Positions 21,633-46,616 of a stretch of 64,000 bases of DNA are shown here, one piece after another. Both the position numbers and the translations under genes were made by a program. Source of the DNA: an uncultured Bacilli bacterium (lineage in GTDB: Bacteria > Bacillota_I > Bacilli_A > RF39 > UBA660). A model generated the notes under the pieces. That model saw nothing but the letters and a program-made list of their open reading frames with translations. It had not been told where the DNA came from and ran no database searches. Numbering within the stretch: position 1 is the stretch's first letter; each line of letters starts with the position of its first letter. Location: assembly GCA_934095865.1 (NCBI GenBank), contig CAKOKU010000006.1:175-64174 (forward strand), written 5' to 3'.

Positions 21633-21633
21633 T

Positions 21634-28593: not shown

Positions 28594-28607
28594 GTAGGTG
28601 AAGAATA

Positions 28608-29408
28608 GTGAAAGAATCTTATTGGGGTTACTGGTTAGTAATGCTTGGTATTTTGGTAATAGGCGTTATGCTTCTTATCAACAGTACTACTAACGGTACA
28701 ACCCATGATTATTATGAATTAAAAGAAACAACATCGGCTGCCGTTATAGATGCAGTAGACTACTCTTACTACCGTCTATATGGTGATTTGAAAATATCAA
28801 AAGAAAAATTTATAGAGAACTTCATCCGTAGATTTTCTGAGTCAGCAACTATGACTAAAGAATATAACGTATCATTTTATGATATTCATGAAGTTCCTCC
28901 TAAAGTAAGTGTTAAAATATCTACTGTTAGTAACGCTGTAAACGTTGCTAACAGTAGTAACTCTTTCGATTTAGTTAATAAAATAGATATTATATTAGTT
29001 GGAGGCTCAAAAGATAATAATAAAACACCAGGTAAAACTGAGCCAACAACTCCAGAAACATGCTATATCTTAAATACGACACAAACATTTATGAAGATTA
29101 TTAAGGAAATCTTAGTTGATGGTACTAGTACTTATGGTGTAGATACCGCATTAGTTCAAAGAATAAGACATGCTGGCTTTACTAATTTAAATTCATGGTC
29201 AAAAACTGATTGTAATATATCAAGTGATGATTGTGTAAGTAAATTTAATTCAGCATTAAACTTAGATTTCAGTGGTGCTTTACAACTTGCTGATACTAGA
29301 GAGCTTTTAATAACCAACGACCCAACTTATGTCAAGGATTCAAATGATGAAACTAGTGGCATCTTAGGTTATGCGTTAAATAAAGGCTATATAACCCTAA
29401 CTAAATAA
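28608..29408 (+). CDS. Single-pass membrane protein of the Tad-like cluster, function unknown
   Basis: GTG start after AGGTGA. The N-terminal hydrophobic helix WGYWLVMLGILVIGVMLLI is followed by a domain of about 230 aa. No prepilin cleavage motif. Confidence 0.55.
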   Translation: MKESYWGYWLVMLGILVIGVMLLINSTTNGTTHDYYELKETTSAAVIDAVDYSYYRLYGDLKISKEKFIENFIRRFSESATMTKEYNVSFYDIHEVPPKVSVKISTVSNAVNVANSSNSFDLVNKIDIILVGGSKDNNKTPGKTEPTTPETCYILNTTQTFMKIIKEILVDGTSTYGVDTALVQRIRHAGFTNLNSWSKTDCNISSDDCVSKFNSALNLDFSGALQLADTRELLITNDPTYVKDSNDETSGILGYALNKGYITLTK

Positions 29409-29427
29409 GAGTAGAAAGAGGATAAAA

Positions 29428-30249
29428 ATGGATAAAATTAAAGAAGAACTAAAAAAAGTTCTCGCTAATAAAAATACACTTACTATTATTATTGTAATTA
29501 TTGGTATTATTGGTTTATATGCAATTTATAACTGGCGTGTAAATCAAGCCGTAACAACAATAAGGGTACCATACGCAAAAAAAGAATTAACTAGTCGTAC
29601 TCAAATAACTAGTGATGCCATTGGTACCACAGAGCTACCAAAAAGAATAGCTCGCAATTTAGGAATTTTAACATCTACAAGTAACATAACTAATAATTAT
29701 GTAAAATATGGTGAAACAATTCCTGCTAATAGCTTCTTTTATAAAGATTATATTGTTTCCTTTGAAGAAGCTACTACTAATGAATTTAGTGATATCCCAG
29801 ATGGTTATACAGCATACAACCTAGCAGTTGATATAAACTCAACATACGGTAACTCAATATACACTGGCAATTACGTAGACCTTTATGTAAAAGCAACCAG
29901 TGCTAGTAGTAAAGTAATCTTTGGTCGCTTAATAAAAAGTATCAAAGTATTAGCCGTATTAGACTCATCAGGCAATGATGTCTTTGAATCATCAACTGAA
30001 GCTAGAACCCCAACTCAAATGTGGTTCGCTGTACCAGATGAACTATATACATTATTAAAGAAAACCGAATATATTGGTGGCATCAGCGTTATGCCAATTC
30101 CAAGAAATGCAAGTTATACAGCAACACCTAGTGATACAACTATTGACTCACAATATATTCAAAACTTTATCTTATCTAAATCAATAACAGTTAGTCAAAA
30201 TTTCAATAGTAATACCAATACGGGTACTGAAACAGAAAATCAAGAATAG
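29428..30249 (+). CDS. cpaB: CpaB/RcpC-like pilus assembly protein, paralogue 1
   Basis: TM helix, then a SAF-like segment IRVPYAKKELTSRTQITSDAI. DGYTAYNLAVDINSTYGNSIYTGNYVDLYV matches the recalled CpaB core (g.rAvsv.vd...G.i.PGD.VDv). Confidence 0.6.
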   Translation: MDKIKEELKKVLANKNTLTIIIVIIGIIGLYAIYNWRVNQAVTTIRVPYAKKELTSRTQITSDAIGTTELPKRIARNLGILTSTSNITNNYVKYGETIPANSFFYKDYIVSFEEATTNEFSDIPDGYTAYNLAVDINSTYGNSIYTGNYVDLYVKATSASSKVIFGRLIKSIKVLAVLDSSGNDVFESSTEARTPTQMWFAVPDELYTLLKKTEYIGGISVMPIPRNASYTATPSDTTIDSQYIQNFILSKSITVSQNFNSNTNTGTETENQE

Positions 30250-30266
30250 AAAGTGAGTTATAAAAG

Positions 30267-31040
30267 ATGAAAAACGCTCTTGCACCTTTAAAAAGGTTCA
30301 TTCAAAATAAAAATACTGTTACTATCCTTTGTATAGTAGCTGGTATCTTAACTTTAGTAATAGGGTATAACTACCGAGTTAATAAATCAATTGACTTGGT
30401 TTCTATTCCCTATGCTCTAAAGGAAATTCCAAGAAAAACCCAAATAACAAAAGATATGATAGGACACGTTAAAGTACCACGTTCCTTAATTAAAAATGCT
30501 AAAAATATCATAACGACAGACAAAGAATTAATAAATTATTATTCTAGTTATTCTACTGATATCCCAGCTAAAAGTTTATTTTATACTGACACAATCCTAA
30601 AAGAAGAACAAATGCCAGATTATGCTTTTACAAATATGCAAGATGGTTATACCGTATATTCTCTTAAAGTAAATAACAAATCAACGTATTCAAATCGTTT
30701 CCGTCCAGGTGATTATATTGACCTTTATATTGAAGCAAAAGATCAAAATCGTGTCATGATGGCAATCTTAGTTAAATCTATTAAAATTAAAGCCATTAAA
30801 GATTCAGCCGGAAATTCTATTCTAGAAAATACACTATCTGGTGGTACTCCAGCTGCACTTCTATTTGAAGTAGAAGATAAACTATTTGATTTACTTAAAA
30901 AAAGTGAATATGTTACTAATGTTGAAATAATTCCTGTACCAAGAAACTCTAACTATACTAAAGAAGAGGGTGCAACTACGGTCTCAACAGAAGAAATAAC
31001 TAACTATATTTATAATAAAACTGAAGTTATAACTAATTAG
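30267..31040 (+). CDS. cpaB: CpaB/RcpC-like pilus assembly protein, paralogue 2
   Basis: Same architecture and collinear with paralogue 1: VSIPYALKEIPRKTQITKDMI, DGYTVYSLKVNNKSTYSNRFRPGDYIDLYI, LLKKSEYV...PVPRNSNYT. Confidence 0.6.
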   Translation: MKNALAPLKRFIQNKNTVTILCIVAGILTLVIGYNYRVNKSIDLVSIPYALKEIPRKTQITKDMIGHVKVPRSLIKNAKNIITTDKELINYYSSYSTDIPAKSLFYTDTILKEEQMPDYAFTNMQDGYTVYSLKVNNKSTYSNRFRPGDYIDLYIEAKDQNRVMMAILVKSIKIKAIKDSAGNSILENTLSGGTPAALLFEVEDKLFDLLKKSEYVTNVEIIPVPRNSNYTKEEGATTVSTEEITNYIYNKTEVITN

Positions 31041-31051
31041 AAAGGATTAAT

Positions 31052-32455
31052 ATGAACGAGGCAATATTTGAGCAAATGGACTTTGGTCCGCTATCTGAAT
31101 TTCTAGCTGATGATGATATTACCGATATATCTTATTCTAATAATGGTCAAGTTTGGTTAAAAACCTTATCTAAAGGTGTTTATCAAGTAGAAAGACCTGA
31201 TATAAATAATACATTTATGGAAAAGTTAGCATTCCAATGTTCAAACGTCATGGGTAAAACATTTAATATGGCTCATCCCTTATTAGATGCTGAATCAGCC
31301 GAATTACGTATGAACTTCATTCATGAATCAATTGCTACTAATGGTATTGCCTGCTTAATCCGTAAAACCCCGGCTAAAATTCGTCTTAATAAACAAAAAT
31401 TATTAAATGAAGAATATATAACAGAAACCCTACACGATTTTTTAATGAATTGTGTAGCAGGTCACTGCAATATTATTGTTGCCGGTGAAACTGGTTCTGG
31501 TAAAACCGAGCTATTAAAATATTTAGCAAGTCATATCAAAGAAAATGAAAAAATTATTACTATTGAAGATACTTTAGAACTTCACTTAGATAGAATTTTC
31601 CCTCATCGTGATATTGTTGCTATGAAAACTAATAATATTTGTAGTTATACTGATGTTCTAGTAGCCTGTATGCGTCAAAACCCAATTTGGATTTTACTTT
31701 CCGAAGTTCGTTCTGGTGAGGCCGTTATGTCTGTACGTAATGCCATATCATCAGGCCACAATATCTTATCAACAATCCACGCTGATAAAGCAAGATCAAT
31801 CCCATTGCGTATGTATTCCTTAATGGAATCAAGTCAAGATGTTCAACAATTTCTAACAACAATTCATAGATATGTTCAAATAGGTATTTATGTTAAAGGT
31901 TATTTTAGTAAAAAATTTAATCGTTTTCAAAGAGAAATTATTGAAGTTTGTGAATTTTACGTTGATGAAAACAATCAACCATGTACTAATGAAATATATA
32001 AAAAATCATTAGATGGCCAATATGTATTAAAAAATCCAACTCAGCAGTTACTAGATTATTTAAGTATTCAAAATGTTATGTTAGAAAAAGATACCTTCCA
32101 TTTGGGAGATAAAGAAGAATATGATGGTAATGTTGAAGATGATTTAAAGAAAAGTCAGAGTAATGGCGAAGTAAGTAGTAATGTAAATACGGCACCGGTT
32201 GAAAGTGTTAATACACCTAGTCAAAGCAATCAACCATCAGAAACATTAAATATTCCAAATCAAAATCTTACTGCTTCTACTAACCAAAGTAATATTCCTA
32301 ATAATTTAAACAATCCTAACAATAATCAAAGTCCAAATAATACGCCAATCAATAATAATCCGTTACCAAATGGCGTACCAGTAAATAGTTTCTTTAGTAA
32401 TAATACTACACTAAATAACAATATAACTACTTCTAATAGTGAAGAAGTATTATAG
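31052..32455 (+). CDS. tadA: CpaF/TadA-type secretion ATPase with N/P/S-rich C-terminal tail
   Basis: Walker A GETGSGKTE (31484-31510), Asp box ITIEDTLEL, Walker B RQNPIWILLSEVR, His box LSTIHA. The size and the following TadB/TadC-like genes fit the Tad subfamily. Confidence 0.8.
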   Translation: MNEAIFEQMDFGPLSEFLADDDITDISYSNNGQVWLKTLSKGVYQVERPDINNTFMEKLAFQCSNVMGKTFNMAHPLLDAESAELRMNFIHESIATNGIACLIRKTPAKIRLNKQKLLNEEYITETLHDFLMNCVAGHCNIIVAGETGSGKTELLKYLASHIKENEKIITIEDTLELHLDRIFPHRDIVAMKTNNICSYTDVLVACMRQNPIWILLSEVRSGEAVMSVRNAISSGHNILSTIHADKARSIPLRMYSLMESSQDVQQFLTTIHRYVQIGIYVKGYFSKKFNRFQREIIEVCEFYVDENNQPCTNEIYKKSLDGQYVLKNPTQQLLDYLSIQNVMLEKDTFHLGDKEEYDGNVEDDLKKSQSNGEVSSNVNTAPVESVNTPSQSNQPSETLNIPNQNLTASTNQSNIPNNLNNPNNNQSPNNTPINNNPLPNGVPVNSFFSNNTTLNNNITTSNSEEVL

Positions 32456-32464
32456 GAGGATAAA

Positions 32465-33367
32465 ATGGAGTTAATAATTTTAATTGCACTTGCACTATTT
32501 GCCTTTTCCTACCGTAATAGTGCTAATGCCTCAATCGATGGAGCTTTCAAATTCATTCAAAATGGTGTAACCAACCTTTATGATAGATATGCTCCATATA
32601 GTTTTAAACAAGTAAGAGAAAAAACCAAAGAATTAGGTGAGGAATATACTGTAAGACAATATTTAAGTCAAGTTGCCTTGTTTGGCATCGTTGCTGGTGG
32701 CATCGCATATCTTTACTTTTATAATTTATTTATAACTATAATTTATGCAGCCATCGCCATTGCTTTTATTCCATATCTATCATATCTAAGAACTCAACGA
32801 ATTTATTCTGAATATATATTCGAGCAAATTCAAACTTATACTACTAACGTTATCATGGAATTTAATACGACTCAGAGTTTTGTTAAATCTCTAGAAGGTG
32901 TAGTTGAATCTGGTATCTTAGAAAAACCCGTTGTTGATGATGTTAAAACGATGATTAATATGGCTTATGCTAATGGTACTATTGACCAATCAATTGCTTA
33001 CTTTAATGAAAAATATCCATATTATATGGTCAAGAATATGCACCAATTATTTTATCAAATTACTAAGGAAGGTTCTAAAGACTCTGGTGAATCCCTAGAA
33101 AATATGTCATTAGACATCGATGCTTTAGTAGAAGGTGTTTATCGTGATAGAATGGATAGAGCTAACTTCCACAAAAAGTTCTTAACTTTCGGTATGGCCT
33201 TATTCTTATTAGCAGCCGTTATGCAATTCTTATTAGGTCGTGATTCATATATTAAACTACTAGAAATGTGGTATGTTAAACTAATCTTACATTTAATAAT
33301 CATAATAAACTGCTATTTCTTATTAACTGGTGAGAAATATTATAATGAAGATGTGGGGGTAGAGTAA
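32465..33367 (+). CDS. tadB: TadB-like platform protein (single T2SSF domain)
   Basis: N-terminal TM helices, a central cytoplasmic helical domain and C-terminal TM helices. It is about 300 aa and lies immediately after the ATPase gene. Confidence 0.6.
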   Translation: MELIILIALALFAFSYRNSANASIDGAFKFIQNGVTNLYDRYAPYSFKQVREKTKELGEEYTVRQYLSQVALFGIVAGGIAYLYFYNLFITIIYAAIAIAFIPYLSYLRTQRIYSEYIFEQIQTYTTNVIMEFNTTQSFVKSLEGVVESGILEKPVVDDVKTMINMAYANGTIDQSIAYFNEKYPYYMVKNMHQLFYQITKEGSKDSGESLENMSLDIDALVEGVYRDRMDRANFHKKFLTFGMALFLLAAVMQFLLGRDSYIKLLEMWYVKLILHLIIIINCYFLLTGEKYYNEDVGVE

Positions 33368-33368
33368 T

Positions 33369-34157
33369 ATGTATTTTGAAATTCTTGGCTTATCAGCCCT
33401 ATACTTATTTGTCTTAAATAAAACTAAAGTTATTGATGTCAAAAAATGTATAAATGATAACGTTGGCTATTTCCTACGTTTTAAAGAATCTGATTATGAT
33501 TTTCTAGTGCGTACTCGTTATGGTGAAGGCGTTGACCCCGATTATTTATTCGGTAAAAGAATTACTCAGGGACTAGTAGTAGGGCTATTAGTAATCTGCT
33601 TCTTCATTAATAAATTCAGTTATATTTATGTTATTTTGGCTATTGTTGCTGGTATTTTCATGTTTAAATCAAGTTATAACAGCTTGAAAAATTATTATAA
33701 AAACAATTTGCACACCATTGATGCCATGTTGCCACATTACTTAAAAGGCTTAGAAATCTTAATTCAACACTATACCGTACCAGTTGCCATTGCTAAAAGT
33801 GTCGACACGGCCCCAGAAATCTTTAAAAAAGGCTTATTAGAAATGATTGCCAAGATAAATTCTGGTGATAGTTCAATTGAACCTTATATGGACTTTGCTC
33901 GTACTTATCCAGTTCGTGATTCTATGCGTATGATGCGTTTACTATACCGTCTAGGTTTAGGGCGTCAAGATAGAAAACAAGAACAATTATTAAATTTCTC
34001 TCGTTCAATTTCAAGCTTACAACAAAAAGCGCGTGATACTAAATATAAAGAACGTCTAGATAAAATGGAAAATAAGACTATGAGTATGCTTATTTCTACT
34101 GGCTTAGGTGTTATGATATTACTAATTTTAGCAGTAATGCAAATGATGAATGGTTAG
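33369..34157 (+). CDS. tadC: TadC-like platform protein (single T2SSF domain)
   Basis: Starts 1 nt after the tadB-like stop. Topology is TM, helical domain (YMDFARTYPVRDSMRMMRLLYRLGLG), then a C-terminal TM. Confidence 0.6.
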   Translation: MYFEILGLSALYLFVLNKTKVIDVKKCINDNVGYFLRFKESDYDFLVRTRYGEGVDPDYLFGKRITQGLVVGLLVICFFINKFSYIYVILAIVAGIFMFKSSYNSLKNYYKNNLHTIDAMLPHYLKGLEILIQHYTVPVAIAKSVDTAPEIFKKGLLEMIAKINSGDSSIEPYMDFARTYPVRDSMRMMRLLYRLGLGRQDRKQEQLLNFSRSISSLQQKARDTKYKERLDKMENKTMSMLISTGLGVMILLILAVMQMMNG

Positions 34158-34264
34158 ACAATTAATTATTTTACAAATCCATTTCTTGAATAGGGGAATG
34201 GTTTTTTTATTTTTCAAATTTATCAATGATAATACAACAATATTACCAAAACTTAAAATTAATA

Positions 34265-34273
34265 TGCTATACT
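34265..34273 (+). promoter_or_regulatory. Extended -10 element (TGcTATACT) upstream of the pilin gene
   Basis: Lies in the only sizeable gap of the cluster (162 nt), after a weak hairpin and T-run at about 34181-34215. Confidence 0.4.
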
Positions 34274-34319
34274 AATAGTATCATAGATAATAATAAAAAC
34301 GAGATTTAAGAGGTTTAAT

Positions 34320-36059
34320 ATGAAAAGAAAAAAGGGATTTACAATACCAGAACTTCTAGCTGTAATTGTTATAATAGGAGTTCTAACTGTCATGTCAGTA
34401 GGTACCTACACATCGATTAGTAAAAGTGTAAAAGAAGCTGAATTAAAAGAAAAGATAGAATATTTAAAGTCAAAAGTAATGGAATATGCTAGTGACAATA
34501 ATATAGAAAGAGATACTATTACAGTTAGTACTTTAATTGATTTAGGTTACATCGAAATGGATCACCCTGAAAACGCCAAACAAGAAAAGATTGATAATCC
34601 TGTAACTGGTGGTTATTTAGATTGTACTAACTTTACTATTGTTAGAGATTTAGATGATTATAATATAACATATGACTTAGAAGGCAGCTGCTTAACTGCT
34701 GATGTAGAATCAAAATCAGGTGAAATAAAAACAAGTCTTTATGTTTTAACTAATAATGGCTTAAAATCTTTAGATGAATTTAAATTATCAGACAAAGATA
34801 TCATTATAGATAATAATAAGGAAAATAATGACAATAAAAATAATAACAGTGGCAGTAGTATAATTGGCGGCTTATTTGGTGGCCTACTAGAAGGGATTTT
34901 AGGCAATAATGCAAATTCAATTCTAGGTGGTATCTTTGGCGGTTTAAAAAATATTTTTAGTTGGTTATTTCCTAATGCTTTTGCAACTCCCGTAAATTCT
35001 ATATATGATATTCATCCTTGGGCGGGTAGTGATGTATACTTATTTGTTGATTTTAGTGATGTCAGTTTTAATATTAAAGATAATAGTGTAACTTATGACA
35101 TCGGTGGTTTAAGTACAAGTACGAAAGAAGGAAACATTTGTTCAAAATCTAATGTTAATGTAGATTGTGCCAATGTTATAAGAGTTGAATCCGTACTGTT
35201 GTTTAACAGCTTAGTTAGTGCTACCGTCAATACTGATTACGGTTATGTTACGAAAAAAGCTTTGGTTAGAATTGATAAAGAAAATCCTACCATAAAAATA
35301 GATTATGATCAAAGTTATACTAGTAATAGTGTTCCTGTTTATTTGACTGGTGAAGATGGAGCGGGAAGTGGAATCGCTGGTTATTACTTTGGTAAAAAAG
35401 CTAGTCCAACTATTGATGATTTTACTACAACAAGTACCTATCATGTTAACGAAAATGGTAAATATTATGCGGCGACAATTGATAACGTAGGGAATATGTC
35501 AGAAATAAAAACAATCAATATTAGTTCGATTGATAAAGATGCGCCAATTGGTTTTATAAATCCTAGTGGCCGTGATGATTGGTCAACCTCAGATTTTACT
35601 TTCAACTTTGGTTGCAGTAGTGATACAAAAGCCGGCTGTGCAAATAAGATTGTTTATTCAATTTACAATAATGATACTAGTTCTTATATTGTTCAAAATG
35701 TAACTGTTGATGAAGCCTCTACTTCTTACACTGTAACGACACCAAATAATACTAGTCTTTCATCTATTACCTTAACTTATACAATATATGATAATGTTGG
35801 AAACTCAAGTACCAAGGTAGAAACTATTCATACCAGAATTGATAAAGTAGACCATTCATCTAATAATAATTCTGGTGGCGGTAATCCAGGTCCAAATGAT
35901 GAAAATCATGCCTGTAAAGGCTGGGAAGGCTTGGCTTGTGTCTTAGCTGGAGCCGCTGCTGGTGGTTTAGGTGGTGCTCAATTAGGTGGCGGCATCGGTG
36001 CTGCGATTGGGGCTGCGGCCGGAGCTCTTGGCGGCTTACTATGTGTAATTTTCTGTTAA
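34320..36059 (+). CDS. Large modular type IV prepilin (class III signal peptide) with Ig-like modules and glycine-zipper segments
   Basis: N-terminus MKRKKG|FTIPELLAVIVIIGVLTVMSV has a short basic leader, Gly-1, Phe+1, Glu+5 and a hydrophobic helix. Boundaries IDKENPT, IDKDAPI and IDKVDHS suggest Ig-like modules. GxxxG-rich segments sit at about 34851-34975 and 35921-36056. Confidence 0.8.
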   Translation: MKRKKGFTIPELLAVIVIIGVLTVMSVGTYTSISKSVKEAELKEKIEYLKSKVMEYASDNNIERDTITVSTLIDLGYIEMDHPENAKQEKIDNPVTGGYLDCTNFTIVRDLDDYNITYDLEGSCLTADVESKSGEIKTSLYVLTNNGLKSLDEFKLSDKDIIIDNNKENNDNKNNNSGSSIIGGLFGGLLEGILGNNANSILGGIFGGLKNIFSWLFPNAFATPVNSIYDIHPWAGSDVYLFVDFSDVSFNIKDNSVTYDIGGLSTSTKEGNICSKSNVNVDCANVIRVESVLLFNSLVSATVNTDYGYVTKKALVRIDKENPTIKIDYDQSYTSNSVPVYLTGEDGAGSGIAGYYFGKKASPTIDDFTTTSTYHVNENGKYYAATIDNVGNMSEIKTINISSIDKDAPIGFINPSGRDDWSTSDFTFNFGCSSDTKAGCANKIVYSIYNNDTSSYIVQNVTVDEASTSYTVTTPNNTSLSSITLTYTIYDNVGNSSTKVETIHTRIDKVDHSSNNNSGGGNPGPNDENHACKGWEGLACVLAGAAAGGLGGAQLGGGIGAAIGAAAGALGGLLCVIFC

Positions 36060-36075
36060 AAAGGATGGATTAAAA

Positions 36076-37392
36076 ATGAATAATGAAGAAATAAAGAAAA
36101 AACTAAGTAAAAAGCAAATGTTATTTATCATAATTGCCGCTATAATTGTAATTGTCGGTATTATCTTTCTAATTATTAAGATTACGGATAAGACTGTGTA
36201 TTATAAAAATGTCATAAATACTTCTTTTAATAAAATAACTACTAGTATTAATGAATTAGATAAAATAACGGGAAATAACACTTCTTTTTCTGATTCTATT
36301 ATCGTAAATGGTGATATACAAGATAATACTAGTAAAGTAGGGATAGAATTAAAGACTAATCTTAAAGATAAAATTCTTCGAGGAAAAATTAATTACAATA
36401 CATATGATTTAAACTATATCTATCAAGACAATAAATCATATATAAGTTCTGATAGTATATTTAATAATACCTACCAGATTGATGGTAAACTAGGCAGTAT
36501 AGATTTAGATGGTATCTTAAGCAACATAACCATTGAAAGCAGCGCTGATACTGCTGAATTAATAAATACTATAAATAGTCTAAAAGCTATAATCACATCT
36601 TCTTTAGAAAACAAATATATCTCCAAGAAAACAACTAAGACAATAATAGATAAAACCGAAGAAAGTGTTACTAGATATTCTTATACTTTAAACAAAGAAT
36701 CATTAAAAAAGTTCTTAGATAAATTAAATAAAAATAATAATTTGAAGAAAAGAATTATTAACTTAGTCAACACCATTGCTAAAGATGAAGTATTAACAGA
36801 AAGTAATTTTAGAAGTGAGCTTGAAAATAAAATAATCAATGGTACTTTTAATATCTATACCCAGGGTAGCAAAGTTAGAAAAGTAAGTATTTATTTAGTT
36901 GATTTTCTTAATGTTGATTTTACCTCTAATAACGGTTATGATAGGGTAGAATTTACTAATGAAAAGAAATCTAACAATATAATTATTAATTACAATACTA
37001 ATACTAAAGAATATACCATATCTTTATTTCAAAAATCTAGCAAGCGTTTTGATATTATTTTTATGATGGATAATGATATAAATGCTAGTTACAGTGTATA
37101 TACAAATAATGATAAAATAACGGGAACTATTACCGTAACTGATGTTATGAATATTAAAAATCGTAAAATAAAAGCTACAATTAATTATAATAATAAAACT
37201 TTTACAATTAGCTGTACTATAAATAAGAATGATTCAGTATCTAAAATGGATGTTAGTAATGCTATAACCAATGGTACTCCTAGCGAAGAAGAACAGTTGA
37301 AATTTAAAAATGCAATTAGTGAATTTACTAATAGTTCATTATTTAAGGATTTATCTTCTTTAGTTTTAAATTTAATAGGCAATAATAATTAA
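36076..37392 (+). CDS. Single-pass membrane protein, N/I/K/T-rich ectodomain, function unknown
   Basis: RBS AAAGGA, TM helix MLFIIIAAIIVIVGIIFLII, no recognised motif. Confidence 0.5.
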   Translation: MNNEEIKKKLSKKQMLFIIIAAIIVIVGIIFLIIKITDKTVYYKNVINTSFNKITTSINELDKITGNNTSFSDSIIVNGDIQDNTSKVGIELKTNLKDKILRGKINYNTYDLNYIYQDNKSYISSDSIFNNTYQIDGKLGSIDLDGILSNITIESSADTAELINTINSLKAIITSSLENKYISKKTTKTIIDKTEESVTRYSYTLNKESLKKFLDKLNKNNNLKKRIINLVNTIAKDEVLTESNFRSELENKIINGTFNIYTQGSKVRKVSIYLVDFLNVDFTSNNGYDRVEFTNEKKSNNIIINYNTNTKEYTISLFQKSSKRFDIIFMMDNDINASYSVYTNNDKITGTITVTDVMNIKNRKIKATINYNNKTFTISCTINKNDSVSKMDVSNAITNGTPSEEEQLKFKNAISEFTNSSLFKDLSSLVLNLIGNNN

Positions 37393-37429
37393 AAGAACTC
37401 TTTTCCTCATAGTAGGAGAAGAGTTCTTT
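37392..37429. terminator. Bidirectional terminator between convergent genes
   Basis: AAAGAACTCTTTTCCT-CATAGT-AGGAGAAGAGTTCTTT, a 16-bp stem with one mismatch and A/T flanks. Confidence 0.75.
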
Positions 37430-37434
37430 AAATA

Positions 37435-39468
37435 TTAATTAGTTTCAACTATAAATGGATCATTAGAAGTACCAATGCCACTAGTTATCTTAACATCAGA
37501 CTTCAAATTGATAACTGGGCGGGCACCATAGCTGTTGTTAACCCACGTGTAGTTAAGCCAGCCGTAGCTATACTGAAACCACTCATGAGCGTGGCCGTAC
37601 CAAGCGCTGAAATTAGAAGGCGACATTGTCCAGTAATGATTCGTAGAGTATGCCCAACTTAATTTATTTAAGTGTTTAACATCCATTCCGGCAAATACCA
37701 ACTCATCATACGTTATTAGACCAACTGGATAAGTTAAAGCTTGATTGCCATCTACTTTTCTTGTTTCTCCATCACTCTTAGCAACTGTATACATATCTCT
37801 ATCTGTGTTGGCACAGTTGAATGTTGCTGTATCACTTGCATATCTTCCATATGGAGCAAATCTTGTATCTTTATCTGTTTGAATTCCGTTGCCACCACTA
37901 TTACTATATAGACTACGGTCTCCACAGAAGCCTACGGCAGTTGAAATATAACTTGAATATCCTTTATCTGCTATATTTGTCTTGTACCATGAATCTACGG
38001 CTGTTTTGATTGTTGAATTATTTGTATTAGCGTGTACTTCATCAAATGTTTCTGTATCGGCATCACCATACATATAACCAACATATGTTGGGTCATTATA
38101 TTTACTATTGAATTGATAATTTTTAGTATTTATTGATTGAGCTGTGCCAGTAGCATTGGCTTTGGAACCATTATAGATAAGTCTTATAGAGCCATCGCCA
38201 TTAATACGAACTATCTGCCAATAATAACCGGCAAATAAAACATTATTATTCTTTACATTACCTCTGTAATAATAGGTTGTACCATAATCATCTGTTCCAG
38301 CGTATAAACCTTTATCAGATTTATCACTCTCTAATTCAGTTTCTGTTAAGGTATTAGCAGTTAAAGTATAAGTATTACTTGCATACTCAACACCATTCCA
38401 CTTTGTTTTTGTACTTGTTGTTATGGCACCAGTTATTTCATAAACAGTTATATCCCCACTGTTAGTTGACGTATACAATTTTTTAGTAGCAGTATTATAC
38501 CCAATACTTTCTGTTGAATAATAGTAATGTGTATCTCCTCCGAAAGTTAACGTAGAAGGATCAACATATTGCATATTACTTAATACATATCTACCAGTTT
38601 CACTATTGAATGTTTTTGTTGTATAAACACGCATCTTCGTATCATTTACTGTCAAATTACTAGTGGCGTCATCAGTTTTTATTGCAGATTCCGCTATTTT
38701 TACAACAGTTCTTGTTTGACCAGTCGTACCAGTTTTTTCTAACCATTTAATTACTGGAGCTGTATTAGTTACTTTAATACCACTATCAGTTGTTGTTATA
38801 TTAGCACTTTGTTTTGCCTTGATTTTTTCAATTGCAATCTCTGGTGTTGTTTGATATTCATTAGCCAAAATAGCATCATGTAAGGTGTTATATCCAGAAT
38901 CAACAGGTGAATAACTGCTAGGTTCTGAAGTTACAACAATCTTTGTTTTAAAGATTTTATTCATGGCAGCCGTATCATTAATAGTAACACTTTCATCTAT
39001 CCAAAAAGACACATTATAATCAATCGAATCCCCAGCACCTAAATATCCAGTAACTAAAGTCCTAGCTTCTGTACTAGTAGATAAATTTTTGTTAGAATCT
39101 TCCTCAAATTCACTTAATAATTTAATATCTTCATTATTAACTCTAACAGCAATATATTTACTATTCATAGTAGTACCTTCAAGCATTTCTAAATTAACAT
39201 AATATTTAGCAAAAATACTACAAGTATTAGTAATAGTAAAATTATATGGCTTTAATTTCTTACCATCTTCATCACTAATTGGATAGGCATTTTCTAAGGT
39301 AAAAGTATTGGCTTCATTAGAAATTGAAACATCAAAGCAACCGGATAATGCTTTATTATTATTATCACTTATTTTAACAAAGCGCCAATAAGCATAAGAA
39401 GAACCAATGATAGCCACCAGTATTAATAAAACGCCACTACCAATTAACCACATTTTTTTGTTTTTCAT
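37435..39468 (-). CDS. Secreted or surface protein (677 aa) with a SipW-type-like signal, TasA-like N-domain and conserved C-terminal ...RPVINL domain
   Basis: Likely start ATG 39468 (MKNKKMWLIGSG) after AAAGGGA. The signal ends ...IIGSSYAYWRF, resembling the TasA/CalY class. The C-terminal blocks YYYRGNVKNNNVLFAGYYWQIVRINGDGSIRLI, HYWTMSP and GARPVINL are shared with the ORF at 46644..47948. Confidence 0.7.
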   Translation of the reverse strand: MKNKKMWLIGSGVLLILVAIIGSSYAYWRFVKISDNNNKALSGCFDVSISNEANTFTLENAYPISDEDGKKLKPYNFTITNTCSIFAKYYVNLEMLEGTTMNSKYIAVRVNNEDIKLLSEFEEDSNKNLSTSTEARTLVTGYLGAGDSIDYNVSFWIDESVTINDTAAMNKIFKTKIVVTSEPSSYSPVDSGYNTLHDAILANEYQTTPEIAIEKIKAKQSANITTTDSGIKVTNTAPVIKWLEKTGTTGQTRTVVKIAESAIKTDDATSNLTVNDTKMRVYTTKTFNSETGRYVLSNMQYVDPSTLTFGGDTHYYYSTESIGYNTATKKLYTSTNSGDITVYEITGAITTSTKTKWNGVEYASNTYTLTANTLTETELESDKSDKGLYAGTDDYGTTYYYRGNVKNNNVLFAGYYWQIVRINGDGSIRLIYNGSKANATGTAQSINTKNYQFNSKYNDPTYVGYMYGDADTETFDEVHANTNNSTIKTAVDSWYKTNIADKGYSSYISTAVGFCGDRSLYSNSGGNGIQTDKDTRFAPYGRYASDTATFNCANTDRDMYTVAKSDGETRKVDGNQALTYPVGLITYDELVFAGMDVKHLNKLSWAYSTNHYWTMSPSNFSAWYGHAHEWFQYSYGWLNYTWVNNSYGARPVINLKSDVKITSGIGTSNDPFIVETN

Positions 39469-39541
39469 AATAATCCCTTTCATATTTATTATTCCATAAA
39501 TTAAGAAATCTATGCTTAATATTTGTTTTCTTAAAGTGTAC

Positions 39542-39568
39542 TTTTCGTAGAGTTGCATACTCTATGAA
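39542..39568. repeat. Left inverted repeat (IRL) of the candidate invertible element
   Basis: TTTTCGTAGAGTTGCATACTCTATGAA. Its reverse complement occurs at 39807-39833 with one mismatch. Confidence 0.9.
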
Positions 39569-39596
39569 ATTATCTGATTTTGCTTAATAAAATCCT

Positions 39597-39626
39597 TATT
39601 TGACTAAAATCTTGACTATAAATTTT
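39597..39626 (+). repeat. Direct repeat 1 inside the switch core
   Basis: TATTTGACTAAAATCTTGACTATAAATTTT matches 39688-39717 at 25/30 positions. It contains two TTGAC motifs. Confidence 0.8.
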
Positions 39627-39687
39627 AATTTGAAAAAATATTACAAACTCCAGAAAACTAAGGTGAATACTGACTATATTTAGTTTT

Positions 39688-39717
39688 TATTTGACCATGA
39701 ATTTGACTATAAATTTT
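39688..39717 (+). repeat. Direct repeat 2 inside the switch core
   Basis: TATTTGACCATGAATTTGACTATAAATTTT starts 91 bp after repeat 1. Confidence 0.8.
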
Positions 39718-39738
39718 TAAAATAAAGTTATTAAAATA

Positions 39739-39768
39739 CTAACAATAATGCTTATTTTATGGTAAAAT
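39739..39768 (+). promoter_or_regulatory. Promoter-like element inside the switch core, currently pointing towards hrcA
   Basis: CTAACA-N18-TGgTAAAAT, an extended -10. Confidence 0.35.
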
Positions 39769-39806
39769 TATATTAGAAATTAAGAATAGATGCACGTAAT
39801 TACGTA

Positions 39807-39833
39807 TTCATAGAGTATGCAACTCTATGAAAA
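39807..39833. repeat. Right inverted repeat (IRR) of the candidate invertible element
   Basis: TTCATAGAGTATGCAACTCTATGAAAA is the reverse complement of IRL at 26/27 positions. Confidence 0.9.
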
Positions 39834-39948
39834 AAATTAAAGTAATAGTTTACCCTTATTAAAAAGATTTATACATAATAATTAGAAATTTACCATTAAA
39901 AAGTAAAAATTCTTAGAAATAAAACTAGAATCAAAAAAATTTATAAAA

Positions 39949-39976
39949 TTAGCACTCATATATTGACAAGTGCTAA
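39949..39976. promoter_or_regulatory. CIRCE-like operator 1 (HrcA binding site)
   Basis: TTAGCACT-N12-AGTGCTAA has perfect 8-bp arms with a spacer 1 nt longer than canonical CIRCE. It overlaps the -35 of the hrcA promoter. Confidence 0.65.
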
Positions 39977-39991
39977 CATATAAATTATAAT
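39963..39991 (+). promoter_or_regulatory. Consensus sigma-A promoter of the hrcA operon
   Basis: TTGACA-N17-TATAAT, perfect hexamers. Confidence 0.8.
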
Positions 39992-39995
39992 GTAT

Positions 39996-40022
39996 TTAGC
40001 ATTTTGAGATTGGAAGTGCTAA
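39996..40022. promoter_or_regulatory. CIRCE-like operator 2
   Basis: TTAGCATTT-N9-AAGTGCTAA has canonical 9-N9-9 spacing with 3 arm mismatches against TTAGCACTC-N9-GAGTGCTAA. Confidence 0.65.
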
Positions 40023-40048
40023 ATATAAATAAAAGAGGTGATACTATT

Positions 40049-41056
40049 TTGAGTGACAGACAACAATTACTATTAAAAGAAATAGTTGAAAACTACATAT
40101 CACACGCAAAACCTGTCGGTAGTAAATCGCTGTGTAAGAAATTTAAATGTTCATCAGCAACGATTAGAAACGAGATGGCGTATTTAGAAGAATTAGGATA
40201 TATTGAAAAAAACCACATCTCCAGTGGTCGTGTACCATCAGAGAAGGGTTATAAATATTATGTAGAAAACCTAATGCGCCCAAAAGAATTAACTGGTGAA
40301 GATATGCTAAAATTACAAACAATCTTTCAAAATCAGAATTTAGTTGTATCTGATGCCGTTAACAAGTGTGTTGATATTATTAGTGAAATAACCAATTATA
40401 CCTCAGTAATATTAGGTAGCAGCTCTAAAGATAATGCCTTGCAACAAATAAACATTATTCCCTTAGCGGATAATAAAATAGTTGCACTGGTATGTACAGA
40501 TAAAGGCATAGTTGAAAATAAACAATTTGTCCTATCAGCTGATACCGACATAACAGAAGTAGTAAAAACCTGTGAAATAATAAATAAAATGTTAGTAGGT
40601 ACCCCAATTGATGAAGTATCTACTAGATTAGAATTTGAAATCAAACCAATTCTTGCTAAAAAGTTAGCGCAATATGAACAAGTATACAACATATTCTATG
40701 ATGCATTTAGTAACTTTGCCAATAATACCGCAAATATTCACTTTAGTGGCAAATCAAACTTATTTAATCAGCCAGAATATGACAATACCGAAAGTCTAAA
40801 AAGAATAGCTAATAAATTAGAAGATAAAGATTTGGTTAAAAATATATACTCTAATGAATCAGGCATTAAAGTATATATAGGTGATGAAAATGAATTTGAT
40901 AAAGATGTAACAATTATTAAAACTAAATATCACCGAAATGGCGAAGAAGGCACTATTGCCGTAGTCGGACCTAAAAGAATGGAATATGACAAAGTAGTAG
41001 GCTTACTTCAATATATAAGTGAAAATATAAATGATAATGAGGAAAATGATGACTGA
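40049..41056 (+). CDS. hrcA: Heat-inducible transcription repressor HrcA
   Basis: Likely TTG start at 40049 after AAGAGGTGA, giving (M)SDRQQLLLKEIVENYISHAKPVGSKSL. The winged-helix N-terminus and position before grpE-dnaK fit HrcA. The ORF track start at 40004 lies inside CIRCE 2. Confidence 0.9.
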   Translation: MSDRQQLLLKEIVENYISHAKPVGSKSLCKKFKCSSATIRNEMAYLEELGYIEKNHISSGRVPSEKGYKYYVENLMRPKELTGEDMLKLQTIFQNQNLVVSDAVNKCVDIISEITNYTSVILGSSSKDNALQQINIIPLADNKIVALVCTDKGIVENKQFVLSADTDITEVVKTCEIINKMLVGTPIDEVSTRLEFEIKPILAKKLAQYEQVYNIFYDAFSNFANNTANIHFSGKSNLFNQPEYDNTESLKRIANKLEDKDLVKNIYSNESGIKVYIGDENEFDKDVTIIKTKYHRNGEEGTIAVVGPKRMEYDKVVGLLQYISENINDNEENDD

Positions 41057-41618
41057 AGAAGAAAAGAAAAAAGACCAAGAAAAACAAGTAACACCAAAAG
41101 AAGAAACAAAAGAAACTAAACCTGAAGAGAAAAAAGAAGAAAAGAAAAAGTCGTTTTTCAAGGAAAATAAACAAACTAAAGAAATAGAAGAATTAAAGGG
41201 AAAATTAAAAGATTCTAGTGATAAGGTGATACGTCTTTCCGCAGAATTACAAAATATGCGTCGAAGATATGAAGATGAGCTTTCCAAGCGAGCTATGTAT
41301 GAAGGTAGCGATTTAATTAAATCGTTACTACCAATCATAGACAACTTTGAACGTGCTATTGCTATGGATACTAGCGAAAATGATAAATATTTAGAAGGAT
41401 ATAAAATGATTTATACCAATATGCTTAGTGTTTTAAAAAATATTGGTGTAACCGAAATAGATTGTTTACATAAACCTTTTGATCCTAAGTTTATGGATGC
41501 TGTTCTTACGGAAAGTATAATAGAAGAAGAACAAGGCGTAGTTTTGGATGTTTTACAAAAAGGTTATATGTATAAAGATAAATTATTAAGACCAGCGATG
41601 GTTAAAGTTAATGAATAG
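41049..41618 (+). CDS. grpE: Nucleotide exchange factor GrpE
   Basis: Lys/Glu-rich N-terminus, then [12 protein letters not shown] and [11 protein letters not shown] motifs. The start is ambiguous (41031, 41046 or 41049). 41049 has the best spacing from GAGGA. Confidence 0.88.
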
Positions 41619-41629
41619 GAGAGATTAAT

Positions 41630-43459
41630 ATGAGTAAAATTATAGGTATAGATTTAGGTACAACAAATTCATGTGTTGCTGTATTAGAGGGTGGAGTTCC
41701 TCATGTTATTACCAATCCAGAAGGTAATAGAACAACTCCAAGTGTTTTCGCTATTAAAGGCGATGAAGAATTAGTTGGTGAAACTGCCAAACGTCAAGCT
41801 GTAACAAATGTTAAAAATACAGTTTCAAGTATTAAGAGAAAAATGGGTACTAATGAAAAAGTTGAGATTAATGGCCGTAAATATTCACCAGAAGAGATAT
41901 CAGCTAAAATCTTAATGAAACTTAAGAGTGATGCTGAATCTTACTTAGGTGAAAAAGTTACTAAAGCTGTTATTACAGTTCCTGCATACTTTAATGATGC
42001 CCAAAGACAAGCTACTAAAAATGCTGGTAAAATTGCTGGCTTAGACGTAGAAAGAATTATCAACGAACCAACTGCTGCTGCTCTTGCTTATGGTATTGAT
42101 AAACAAGAAAAAACACATACAGTTCTTGTATATGATTTAGGTGGTGGTACATTCGATGTATCAATCTTAGATTTAGGCGATGGTGTCTTTGAAGTTAAGT
42201 CAACTGCTGGTAATAACCATTTAGGTGGCGATGATTTTGACCAAAGAATTATGGATTACTTAGTATCTGAATTTAAGAAAGAAAATGGTATTGACTTATC
42301 AAATGATAAGATGGCAATGCAACGTATTAAGGATGCTGCTGAAAAAGCTAAGAAAGATTTGTCTGGTATGATGAGCGCTGAAATTTCAATTCCATTTATT
42401 GCTCAAAGTGCTGAAGGACCATTACATTTAAATGTAACATTAAACCGTGCTAAATTTGAAGATCTAAATAAAGACTTATTCGATTCTACATTAGATGCTG
42501 TTAGAAAAGCTCTTAAAGATGCTAAACTTACTGCTAATGACATTGATAAAGTGTTACTAGTTGGTGGTTCAACAAGAATTCCATATATCCAAGAATTAGT
42601 TAAGAGAGAATTAGGCAAAGAACCTTCTAAAGAAGTTAACCCAGATGAAGTTGTTGCTATGGGTGCTGCTATTCAAGGTGGTGTCTTAACTGGTGAAGTT
42701 GATGACTTAGTATTGTTAGACGTAACTCCATTATCATTAGGTATTGAAACAATGGGCGATGTTATGACTGTCTTAATACCAAGAAATACAACTATCCCAA
42801 CAAGTAAATCACAAGTATTCTCAACTGCTGTTGATAACCAACCAGCCGTAGATATTCACGTACTACAAGGTGAAAGACCAATGGCTTCAGATAACAAGAC
42901 ATTAGGAAACTTCCGTCTAGATAGTATTCCAGCTGCTCCTCGTGGCGTTCCACAAATCGAAGTTAAATTTGATATTGATGCCAATGGTATTGTTAATGTA
43001 ACTGCTAAAGATTTAGGAACTAATAAGGAACAATCAATTACAATTACATCATCAACTAACTTAAGTGATGAAGAAATCGAGAAAATGAGAAAAGAAGCCG
43101 AAGCTAATAAAGAAGCTGATGATAAAAAGAAAGCATTAGCCGAAGCTAAGAACGAAGCTGATTCAGCAATCTTCCAAACTGAAAAATCATTAAAAGATTT
43201 AGAAGGAAAAGTATCTGATAGCGAAAAGAAAGAAGCCGAAGATAAAATCGCCGATTTACGAAACGTAATGAATTCAGATAATGTTGATGAGATCAAAGCA
43301 AAAACTAAAGAATTAACTGATGTTGCCATGAAATATGCTCAAAGAGTATATGAAGAAGCTGCTAAACAAAATCAAGCAGGAAGTGCAACAAGTAATGAAT
43401 CAACAGAAAACACTTCATCAAAAGATGATGTAAAAGAAGCAAAATACGAAGAAAAATAA
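41630..43459 (+). CDS. dnaK: Chaperone DnaK (Hsp70)
   Basis: [35 protein letters not shown] and other Hsp70 signatures. Confidence 0.98.
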
Positions 43460-43468
43460 AATTAAAAT

Positions 43469-43494
43469 AAAAGTTCTAGGCGACTAGAACTTTT
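43469..43494 (+). terminator. Hairpin after dnaK (terminator or attenuator)
   Basis: AAAAGTTCTAG-GCGA-CTAGAACTTTT. Confidence 0.7.
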
Positions 43495-43522
43495 ACTACT
43501 AATATAGAAGAAATGAGGATAT

Positions 43523-45328
43523 ATGGAAAGAAGTCAAATAGACGAAAAAGATACTTGGGATTTAACAAAATTATTTAAGAATCAAGAAGAGTATGAAACT
43601 TCTTATAAAGAAGTAGAAAACTTACTACAACAACTAATCGCTTGTAAAGGTCATATTTTAGATTCGGCCCAAACATTGTATGATTATTTAAGTATAAGTA
43701 CTAGTTTAAGTTTGCTTCTTGATAGACTTGCTGCTTATTCCTATTTTAATTTTTATCAAGACACAACATCAAAACTAGGCCAAGAATTAAAAGAACGCAT
43801 TGAGTCTCTCGGCAGTAAAATTACGGAAGCAACTAGTTTTACCAGAACCGAGTTATTAAGCAAACCATACGACGTAGTAAAAAAATATATTAAAGAAGAT
43901 CAAAGATTAAAAGACTATGCTTTTTACTTAGAAGAAGAGTTTAGACAAAAAGAACACACTCTATCGAAAACGGAAGAAGATATCATTGCTAAGTCCCTTA
44001 GTGCTCTTGGTAATTGTAGTGATGCTTTTCAAAGCTTAGATGATGCTGATGTTGATTTTAAATCAGTAAAAAAAGAAGGTCAAAAAGTAGCATTAAATCA
44101 CAGTAATTATTCTACTTTGATTGCGGATAAAGATAGAAGCATTCGTGCTGAAACCTTCAAAAATTACTATGCATTTTACGAAAAACATAAAAATACCTTA
44201 GCAAGTCTATATAAAGGCCAAGTTAAAGAAGATAACTATTTAGCTAAAGTTCATAAATTTTCATCAGCTGTGGAAGCTAGCTTGTTTGATGATGATATTT
44301 CCATAGACGTCTATGATTCTTTAATTAAAACGGTTCATGAAAACTTAGAACCTCTATATTCTTATTTAGATTTTCGTCGTCAATTTTTAGGCCTAGATGA
44401 ATTACATATGTATGATATTCATGCCGAACTGTGTGAGACCAAACTTCCAGAATATACTTTTGAAGAAGCTAAAGATACAATTTTAAAGGCTCTTGCTCCT
44501 TTAGGCGAAAAATATCTTAAAGATATATCAAAAAGTTTTACTGATCGTTGGATAGATAAATATCCATCCCGTGGTAAACGAAGTGGGGCTTTTGAATGGG
44601 GATGCTATGGCATTAGTCCTTATGTTTGCGTAAATTTTGAAGGCGATTATACTTCTGTATCTACCGTAATTCATGAATTAGGTCATGCTATGCACTCGTT
44701 CTATTCTGATGCAAATCAAAGTTATGTTAATAGCCATTACCCAATTGTTTTAGCTGAGATTGCCTCAACTGTCAATGAAGTTTTATTAAATGAATACATG
44801 ATAAAAAATGCTAAGACGAACACAGAGAAGCTATTCTATATCACTAAATTTCTTGATGAATTTAGAGCTACTGTTTACCGTCAAACCCAATTTGCTGAAT
44901 TTGAATATTTAACTCATAAGATGGATAATGACTGTGAAGCTCTAACCAGTGATTCCTTATATAATGTCTATTACAGTTTAAACAAATTATATTATGGACC
45001 TAATGTTATAAGTGATAAAGAAATCGGCTATGAATGGTCAAGAATCCCTCATTTTTATACACCATTCTATGTTTACAAATATGCCACTGGTTTTAGTTGC
45101 GCTATTAAAATAGCTAATGATATTTTAAATGGTAAAGAGAAGGCTTTAGGAAATTATTTACAATTTTTAAGTAGTGGTGGCTCTGATTATCCATTAAACA
45201 TTCTAAAGAAATGTGGTATTGACTTAACTACTGGTGAAGTAGTAAAAGATGCAATTAATATGTTTGCATCAAGATTAGACTTAGCTATAAATATTAGAAA
45301 GGAAATGATTGAAGATGGCAAAGAATAA
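43523..45328 (+). CDS. pepF: Oligoendopeptidase F (M3B)
   Basis: HELGHAMH zinc motif with a downstream EIAS Glu, and the typical length of about 600 aa. Confidence 0.85.
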
Positions 45329-46451: not shown

Positions 46452-46587
46452 AATTAAAGTAACCAAATAATATAGTTTAACAATATGCTATTTTAATGGT
46501 TACTTTTTTCTCTTGATACATAATTTGTCACCTTTTAGTATAAAATATCTACAAGATGGAATATTGTTTAATATCCGTAAAATTCAA

Positions 46588-46616
46588 TTGATTTATTATA
46601 AGTAAATTGTTATACT
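46588..46616 (+). promoter_or_regulatory. Sigma-A-like promoter of the 434-aa paralogue gene
   Basis: TTGATT-N17-TATACT, about 28 nt upstream of the start codon. Confidence 0.5.

Follow-up and report, generated by a model that had tools for sequence, protein, structure and literature searches.

The way in which simple type IV filaments come by new functions is generally explained by modular pilins, and to our knowledge all characterised modules of such pilins are soluble binding or enzymatic domains. What, then, would a pilin do that ends in a hydrophobic, glycine-rich segment? The question is raised by a stretch of 64,000 nucleotides (hereafter the window; 29% G+C) from contig CAKOKU010000006.1 of an uncultured Bacilli bacterium (assembly GCA_934095865.1), in which the gene at 34320-36059 (+) encodes a giant prepilin-like protein with such an end. 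An earlier note on this DNA, made from the letters and their translations, had proposed that the distal end of the pilin could insert into a membrane, either that of its own cell as a second anchor or that of a target cell. We put the probability at about 0.4 that the protein is a modular, tip-type pilin whose C-terminal hairpin enters a lipid bilayer from outside and self-associates, that a partner protein handles this hairpin at the producer surface, and that an immunoglobulin (Ig)-like stalk displays it distally.

The first step is whether the protein is a pilin at all. The open reading frame (ORF) is 579 residues long, exactly as the earlier note had given it, and every peptide string quoted there is present. 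The class III signal with Glu at +5, also claimed there, is borne out: a short basic leader ending in Gly is followed by about 21 hydrophobic residues (FTIPELLAVIVIIGVLTVMSV, 34338-34400), two hidden Markov models (HMMs) of the signal score over their cut-offs (N_methyl PF07963, 25.3 bits vs. 21.2; NCBIfam TIGR02532, 25.0 bits vs. 16.3), and F7, T8, I9, P10, E11, L12 and L13 are invariant in 21 aligned relatives. Beyond the signal, the first 58 residues match solved pilins (family profile against the PDB, E=1.3e-5). An AlphaFold2 (AF2) model, which the earlier note had suggested as a check, was built on 21 family members (mean predicted local distance difference test score, pLDDT, 70.8) and gives a pilin helix and head, three beta-sandwiches and low-confidence tail helices; the lollipop fold of its N-terminal part (helix 9-60 and a small alpha/beta head, 64-150; pLDDT ~55-80) is a prediction only. 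By these marks the gene encodes a type IV prepilin-like protein. It holds the sole class III motif of the window, and the Tad-like cluster upstream has no small class III ORF. As in the published definition of a modular pilin (Raynaud et al. 2021), further modules lie beyond residue 150, here three beta-sandwiches and a C-terminal tail, and these extra modules match no database family.

The tail is laid out as C532-x7-C540, 34 Gly/Ala-rich residues and C575-VIF-C579; its ACVLAG...CVIFC segment, placed at about 35921-36056 in the earlier note, covers residues 539-579 (35934-36056). The GxxxG count of the protein is 15, against 5.5 +/- 2.1 in 2000 shuffles (maximum 14), and the 40-residue tail holds 7 GxxxG and 13 small-xxx-small-xxx-small registers, a glycine-zipper motif in the pattern sense that is conserved across the family. 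Tail and flanking Cys are kept in 21 aligned relatives at ~40% overall identity, with C540, G548, G560 and G564 invariant and C579 nearly so, and conservation among such distant relatives is more than chance composition. Homologues that combine the N_methyl motif with the glycine-zipper tail, which the earlier note had proposed to seek, do exist: the tail is present in 24 of 47, on bodies of 564-805 aa. Lack of conservation, which that note had named as a possible refutation, is thus removed. Among 1176 ORFs in 366 kb (the window and the related loci), a tail of this kind ends only these pilins. Its composition (56% Gly/Ala) and low AF2 confidence would suit a non-functional low-complexity tail or linker; however, the Cys and Gly positions are invariant across ~40%-identical relatives, the tail is found on three different protein bodies, and it co-occurs with a specific neighbouring gene (below), so that this explanation is highly improbable.

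What shape such a tail takes is suggested by a design common to the family: a Cys, a glycine-zipper arm, a central Pro or Gly turn, a second glycine-zipper arm, a Cys and 0-3 further residues. The Cys-Cys spans fall into classes of 25, 32-35, 38-45 and 47-49 residues, a central Pro is present in every tail with a span of at least 32 (the window protein's own tail excepted), and charged residues number 0-2 per tail. AF2 places two helices in the tail, at 538-548 and 559-577, with low confidence. The ten Cys of the pilin form five sequential pairs (102/124, 274/283, 432/440, 532/540 and 575/579); since the family keeps C540 and the first three pairs without exception, extracytoplasmic disulfides probably belong to the design of the protein. 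From this pattern we infer that the tail folds as a helical hairpin stapled by disulfides, its two ends both extracellular, and that it is not a classical stop-transfer anchor.

The hydrophobicity of the tail bears on a different placement, in which it is a permanent anchor in the producer membrane. The pilin would then be a surface-displayed adhesin with an Ig stalk, or else a subunit that forms the base or acts as a stopper, held by both ends or, once processed, by its C-terminus, the neighbouring membrane protein would be a co-anchored accessory or co-receptor, and no other cell would be entered. Kyte-Doolittle values over the last 19-23 residues (1.6-2.4) are in the range of transmembrane (TM) segments, the 25-residue tails, with Trp at both ends of an 18-residue core, resemble single spans, the firm membrane anchoring of the partner would most simply put their interaction at the producer membrane, and comparison of strains finds an ordinary conserved gene pair. 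However, the Hessa sums of the tail are marginal, essentially at or above zero (-0.5 to +3.2 kcal/mol, compared with -0.2 to -3.1 for alpha-1N and -7.4 for the TM segment of the partner), and the last Cys is followed by 0-3 residues only, without a basic, positive-inside flank, in contrast to the product of 20883-21632, whose C-terminal TM segment is followed by KNKKRKESIV. Furthermore, the paired conserved Cys that flank the segment argue for both ends on the oxidising outer side, a fixed topology would sit oddly with a span that varies from 25 to 49 residues, and a doubly fixed pilin could not be extruded into a filament, which would leave the perfectly conserved class III signal pointless. 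We regard this second-anchor arrangement as possible, on the unlikely side.

The strongest clue, and one absent from the earlier note, is the co-occurrence of the tail with the gene downstream. This partner starts 16 nt after the pilin stop codon, has its own ribosome-binding site 9-16 nt after that codon, and combines a strongly hydrophobic single N-terminal TM segment with a large beta-rich ectodomain. In the first 17 related loci, a partner homologue lies within 20 nt downstream of, or overlaps, 17 of the 18 tail-bearing pilins and follows none of the six tail-less paralogues; two more distant tail-bearing pilins have one as well (in L023, and in L103, where it scores 106 bits against the partner profile). 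By this pattern the pilin and the downstream bitopic membrane protein are a two-gene cassette, in which, among these pilins, the partner goes only with tail-bearing members. A terminator-like hairpin upstream of the pilin suggests that the cassette is its own transcription unit, and a second hairpin, downstream of the partner, is likely a bidirectional terminator that closes it. The partner itself matches no Pfam or NCBIfam family, with nothing recurrent at E up to 10, and a profile search of 1.84 billion representatives returned only 70 clusters; distant members of its family are longer, with a cytoplasmic N-terminal extension and, in 4 of 26, a zinc ribbon.

The same scaffold also carries another C-terminal module, Cys-rich, acidic and ~70 residues long, which ends in [NY]KW[RK], mostly NKWR (9 of the 47 homologues; e.g., P0023-P0034 and those of L011, L013 and L105), and which is never found with the 438-aa partner. 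NKWR-tailed paralogues are followed instead by a different protein of 378-384 aa, whose C-terminus resembles that of the 707-aa product of 37435-39558.

Polymorphic toxins combine a trafficking module that is conserved at the N-terminus with repeats, a variable module at the C-terminus and a tightly coupled downstream gene specific to that module; the pilin and its partner match this layout, and divergent cassettes stand in tandem within one genome. The tail might on these grounds be a pore-forming glycine-zipper toxin, in the manner of TelE, CdzC/D or class II bacteriocins; the filament would deliver it on contact, and an immunity protein encoded downstream would neutralise it. The tail of one homologue (P0002) resembles Bacteriocin_IIc (PF10439; 16.8 bits, E=0.007, cut-off 27.1), and both TelE (PMC10434224) and CdzC/D (PMC5380434) are precedents. 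However, the window tail has no Bacteriocin_IIc match, and the 579-aa pilin lacks the double-glycine leader of a class II bacteriocin. Between strains, a 98%-identical allele has the very same tail, and the module boundary shows no hypervariability; orphan immunity genes were not seen either, and one tail-bearing pilin has no partner. The partner, a bitopic protein of 400-470 aa across the family, is unlike the small or multipass immunity proteins of known glycine-zipper toxins, its distant relatives stand alone in housekeeping contexts, and the HMM scores are under their cut-offs. A dedicated toxin with its immunity protein is, on balance, quite unlikely.

The flanks of the tail raise the further question of whether it is kept in the mature protein. 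In many family members, the first tail Cys lies inside G-x-G-C-T-[NDE]-[YF], and by analogy with LPXTG/sortase, PEP-CTERM and GlyGly-CTERM systems, this motif, the hydrophobic stretch and the C-x-x-x end could be a sorting signal that a dedicated enzyme removes or modifies. The conserved signature just before a hydrophobic C-terminal segment is what such a signal would show, and many members have ends that resemble a C-a-a-X box (CAAN, CALS, CAAS). On the contrary, no basic cluster follows the hydrophobic stretch, models of C-terminal sorting signals in NCBIfam and Pfam (LPXTG, PEP-CTERM, GlyGly-CTERM, MYXO-CTERM and others) give no match to the tail at E<=10, the conserved neighbour is a single-pass protein and not a polytopic sortase, exosortase, rhombosortase or CPBP-type enzyme, and the flank in the window clade differs (CKGWEGLAC ... 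CVIFC). We consider a processed sorting signal improbable.

The preferred reading, that of a tip-type pilin with a bilayer-entering hairpin, can be set out as a sequence of steps. The pilin would be exported by Sec, processed by a prepilin peptidase and built into a type IV filament as a low-abundance, probably tip-located subunit, with the Tad-like machine as a candidate assembler. Its disulfide-stapled hairpin, both ends extracellular, would partition into a bilayer from the outer face because it is marginally hydrophobic, and hairpins would self-associate through their glycine zippers. During biogenesis, the membrane-anchored partner may bind or shield the hairpin at the producer surface as a holdase or protector, until the Ig stalk is pushed outward and the hairpin is displayed distally; from there it could sink into the membrane of a cell that it meets, either to anchor to that cell or to perturb it. 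A stronger version, in which the hairpin at the filament tip is driven into another cell's membrane on contact as a grappling anchor or pore-forming warhead, with the partner as holdase or immunity factor, would amount to a pilin-borne, polymorphic-toxin-like delivery; we hold this version to be unlikely.

Several observations weigh against the preferred reading. The tail has an AF2 pLDDT <50. Tails of 25 residues are not long enough to cross a membrane as a hairpin and better fit a single helix, so that one topology for all span classes is an assumption, and two homologues (P0004 and P0005) lack the distal Cys. All glycine-zipper and bacteriocin HMM scores of the tail are under the gathering cut-offs. 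As for the partner, the tail-bearing pilin at 16126-17889 of L008 has none adjacent, the partner's distant relatives occur by themselves in housekeeping contexts, with no pilin beside them, its AF2 model, from a shallow alignment, is poor (pLDDT 46.8), and its fold matches (Foldseek; RseB, the best at E=0.01, then LolA, LprG and OspA) are not significant, so that a LolA-like binder of hydrophobic cargo is a lead only. With regard to assembly, the pilin cassette is absent at this position from the loci closest to the window (TadC-like protein 94-95% identical), and a Pfam scan found no A24 prepilin peptidase among the ORFs of at least 100 aa in the window. Further N_methyl pilins are present in related genomes (L005) and imply the existence of a peptidase.

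Between head and tail lies the Ig-like stalk. The earlier note had counted two or three Ig-like modules set apart by IDK motifs; modularity and delimiters both hold, with IDKENPT, IDKDAPI and IDKVDHS beginning at residues 318, 404 and 507, at the boundaries of beta-sandwich domains, and the count in the AF2 model is three, not two. Foldseek of the whole pilin against the PDB returned only generic tandem Ig/FN3 arrays (E down to 1e-9), and domains 1 and 3 each hold an invariant Cys pair (274/283 and 432/440). At the position of the linker that follows the stalk, more distant paralogues have an extra domain of ~100 aa. Conservation drops along the pilin and is highest at the N-terminus (Table 1).

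The second of the two membrane segments that the earlier note had envisaged, an internal GxxxG-rich stretch at about 34851-34975 (here residues 183-217, 34866-34970), did not hold up. It lies in an insert that is confined to about five to six closest sequences and is predicted to be disordered (residues 154-228, pLDDT <50), and its best 19-residue window is too weakly hydrophobic (Kyte-Doolittle 1.2, Hessa sum +6 kcal/mol); we therefore reject it as a membrane segment. Pfam and NCBIfam, at E up to 10, revealed no known domain in it. The sole conserved part of the insert (34962-34985) reads [FL]-x-W-L-F-P-[NK]-A-x-A (WLFPNAFA|TP in the window, IPVVNA|ES in relatives) and resembles, behind a short hydrophobic stretch, an AxA site of the signal peptidase I type; internal cleavage there could split the pilin module from the Ig stalk.

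Table 1. Positions in the window of the pilin gene, its parts and the adjoining elements (identity, mean pairwise identity in the family; residues are those of the pilin)
Feature	Position	Strand	Identity	Evidence
Tad-like operon, upstream of the pilin	19985-34157	+		Pfam/NCBIfam, structure-database profile
Terminator-like hairpin and T-run, 9-bp stem, TTTTTTTATT tail; between the last Tad-like gene (ends 34157) and the pilin	34179-34201	+		
Ribosome-binding site AAGAGG, 6 nt upstream of the pilin ATG	34308-34313	+		Read from sequence
Class III leader MKRKKG, predicted cleavage after Gly6	34320-34337	+	68% (leader and alpha-1N)	N_methyl HMMs; Gly6 nearly invariant in family alignment
Alpha-1 helix of pilin module, residues 7-60, Phe+1/Glu+5	34338-34499	+		N_methyl HMM, AF2 helix 9-60, PDB profile match
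Small alpha/beta pilin head, residues 61-150, invariant Cys102-Cys124 pair	34500-34769	+	49%	Alignment, AF2
Clade-specific disordered insert, residues 154-228, with internal Gly-rich amphipathic stretch and WLFPNAFA	34779-35003	+	3%	Alignment, AF2
Three tandem Ig/FN3-like beta-sandwich domains, residues 229-320, 324-403, 410-508	35004-35843	+	34-44%	AF2 pLDDT ~80-95, Foldseek
Low-complexity Ser/Asn/Gly/Pro linker, residues 509-531	35844-35912	+		AF2 disordered
Cys-bracketed glycine-zipper hydrophobic tail, residues 532-579	35913-36056	+	32%	Alignment; AF2; sub-threshold Gly-zipper Pfam matches
Partner gene, 438-aa bitopic membrane protein	36076-37392	+		Co-occurrence with tail-bearing pilins; TM Hessa sum -7.4
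15-bp-stem hairpin between convergent partner and 707-aa genes	37393-37428			Read from sequence; scan tool did not flag it

Who carries these pilins? The homology search returned 47 relatives, all unnamed metagenomic proteins, and genomic relatives go under names such as 'Mycoplasma sp. CAG:956', 'uncultured Tenericutes UMGS735' and, for metagenome-assembled genomes from the Hadza, 'uncultured Bacilli'. By this distribution, the protein is a member of a family of giant modular pilins, type IV by their class III signal, that is specific to a lineage of uncultured low-GC gut Bacilli. One related cassette has a PBP2B-like gene and MraY immediately before it, and SpoIVA, SpoVAD and CoatF stand beside others; because such genes adjoin the cassettes, the carriers are, judged by gene content, walled spore-formers. 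Single genomes have several paralogous cassettes, which lie scattered among housekeeping genes and are often tandem-duplicated. Viral contigs (IMG/VR) hold no relatives, and a phage origin was rejected on that ground.

Whether the operon upstream assembles the pilin is a separate question. The operon encodes two small membrane or secreted proteins, a 2319-aa secreted Peptidase_M23 protein, a DUF5411 protein, two CpaB/RcpC-like proteins, a CpaF-like ATPase (CpaF is its closest solved relative, E=1e-20) and two polytopic proteins in the TadB/TadC position, with no recognisable Flp pilin or A24 peptidase. Conservation of this cluster extends to 79 metagenomic loci of the human gut and rumen, where the M23 protein ranges from ~1200 to 2470 aa. 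Adjacency to the pilin cassette is missing from the closest relatives, so that the Tad-like machine is no more than a candidate assembler. The idea that the pilin is part of the Tad-like operon is weakened by this absence and by the hairpin that separates the two, but keeps some probability on account of L103 and L051-53. In L103, a tail-bearing pilin and partner directly follow a cluster unrelated to that of the window, with an order like TadZ-TadA-TadB-TadC (a ParA-family ATPase and a T2SSE ATPase, then proteins without a Pfam match), and in L051-53 the distance from tadC to an N_methyl pilin downstream of it is 6 kb.

A rearrangement is visible around this position. In L028 (13021-13664; TadC-like protein 94% identical), the operon is directly followed by ruvA, an NT5C-family gene and ruvB. 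The window has ~16 kb between the operon and ruvA/NT5C/ruvB (34157-50177), which hold the pilin cassette, the 707-aa gene, hrcA-grpE-dnaK, pepF, dnaJ and ffh. Within the operon, the DUF5411 protein (28608-29408, +) and two small paralogues in L051 (16401-17374) start with M-[KR]-[EQ]-[SA]-x-(G/W)-G-x-W and continue into a hydrophobic helix; from this start, they could be the true filament or pseudopilin subunits of the Tad-like machine.

Other neighbours of the cassettes are recorded here in their own right. The 707-aa protein (37435-39558, -) belongs to no family, has an N-terminal TM segment that ends in GSSYAYWRF and a C-terminus reading GARPVINLK...GIGTSNDPF; its homologues adjoin giant-pilin cassettes in L008 and lie near Tad-like clusters in L087 and L097, and in L013 and L105 its relatives of 378-384 aa overlap NKWR-tailed pilin paralogues, at the 3' end of the latter. 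Three paralogous Tim44-like (PF04280) genes directly follow the distant pilin-partner cassette of L103 (13879-16340), two of them with signal peptides and Ser-rich low-complexity regions. Further off in the window, 59138-60790 (-) encodes a 550-aa Serpin-domain protein (E=1e-43), and five large ORFs (434-838 aa; 2771-5287, 14647-16404, 46644-47948, 52551-54638 and 61034-62776) have no Pfam match at E<=1e-5 (E<=0.01 for 14647-16404).

The cassette is small, two genes and a 48-residue tail. If the preferred reading is true, a membrane-active hairpin on a pilin, with a protein to handle it, would add a functional class, in which a pilus engages a lipid bilayer directly. The Bacilli that carry the cassette, uncultured but abundant in the human gut and rumen, have reduced genomes, and a contact device would bear on their dependence on, or competition with, neighbours. 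Should the tail prove no more than a second anchor, pilin and partner still define two families of proteins without annotation.

How, finally, does the system compare with those already known? Modular pilins such as S. sanguinis PilB/PilC and CofB of enterotoxigenic Escherichia coli consist of a pilin module and bulky C-terminal modules, which in CofB are beta-sandwiches (PMC8179133). The window pilin shares with these, and with V. cholerae TcpB and GspK, the class III signal, a small pilin module, bulky C-terminal modules joined by a linker and an expected location at the tip. Unlike them, it ends in a hydrophobic, Cys-bracketed glycine-zipper hairpin and not in a vWA, lectin or other soluble binding domain, it is accompanied by a dedicated downstream membrane protein, it occurs as several paralogous cassettes away from pilus machinery, and its modules have no database family.

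The tail itself is most similar in Pfam to the glycine-zipper families 2TM, Gly-zipper_Omp and YMGG (PF05433, PF13488, PF13441 and PF13436 were checked), with which it shares two short (G/A/S)xxxG helices and a turn. The scores are low, 19.2 bits for YMGG (cut-off 28.9) and 12.6-13.8 for the others (cut-offs 24-27), and unlike members of those families the tail is Cys-stapled and stands at the C-terminus of a pilin in a monoderm. SlyB/Pcp-type lipoproteins are examples of these families, in which such hairpins oligomerise in or on membranes; they are mainly outer-membrane lipoproteins of diderms. With the glycine-zipper toxins, namely TelE (LXG, type VIIb secretion), CdzC/CdzD (type I secretion), Tse4 (type VI secretion) and class IIb/IIc bacteriocins, the system has in common a C-terminal glycine zipper, the weak Bacteriocin_IIc resemblance and a linked downstream gene. 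In TelE, a Firmicute toxin, the C-terminal glycine zipper is required for membrane damage, and a downstream protein neutralises it (PMC10434224); CdzC/CdzD set a precedent by type I secretion (PMC5380434). The differences are a pilin as the delivery module in place of LXG, type I secretion or a double-glycine leader, a partner unlike known immunity proteins and no hypervariability between strains.

The adjoining operon resembles Tad/Flp (type IVc) systems in its two CpaB/RcpC-like proteins, CpaF-like ATPase and pair of polytopic proteins where TadB and TadC would be. The pilin of Flp systems is small, with a G|xxxxEY-type motif. The window pilin, at 579 aa and with G|FTIPE (the type of T4a, Com and type II secretion pilins), is neither small (~50-80 aa) nor equipped with a Flp-type cleavage motif; moreover, the cluster has no TadV/A24 peptidase, and its adjacency to the pilin is unconserved in the closest relatives. 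In TANB77, an uncultured order of gut Firmicutes with reduced genomes, a CpaF-family assembly cluster is followed by lineage-specific pilin-like genes of 143-236 aa (PMC11680825). Those pilin-like proteins have no Ig stalk, glycine-zipper tail or described partner gene (PMC11680825), and no sequence relationship to the window pilin was found.

The earlier note had not seen this combination described, and our literature searches likewise found no description of a hydrophobic, Cys-stapled glycine-zipper terminal module on a pilin or of a module-specific partner gene; tail and partner match no curated family. Set against these systems, the giant modular pilin is thus already known in kind, and what appears to be new is the glycine-zipper terminal module together with the partner that is specific to it.

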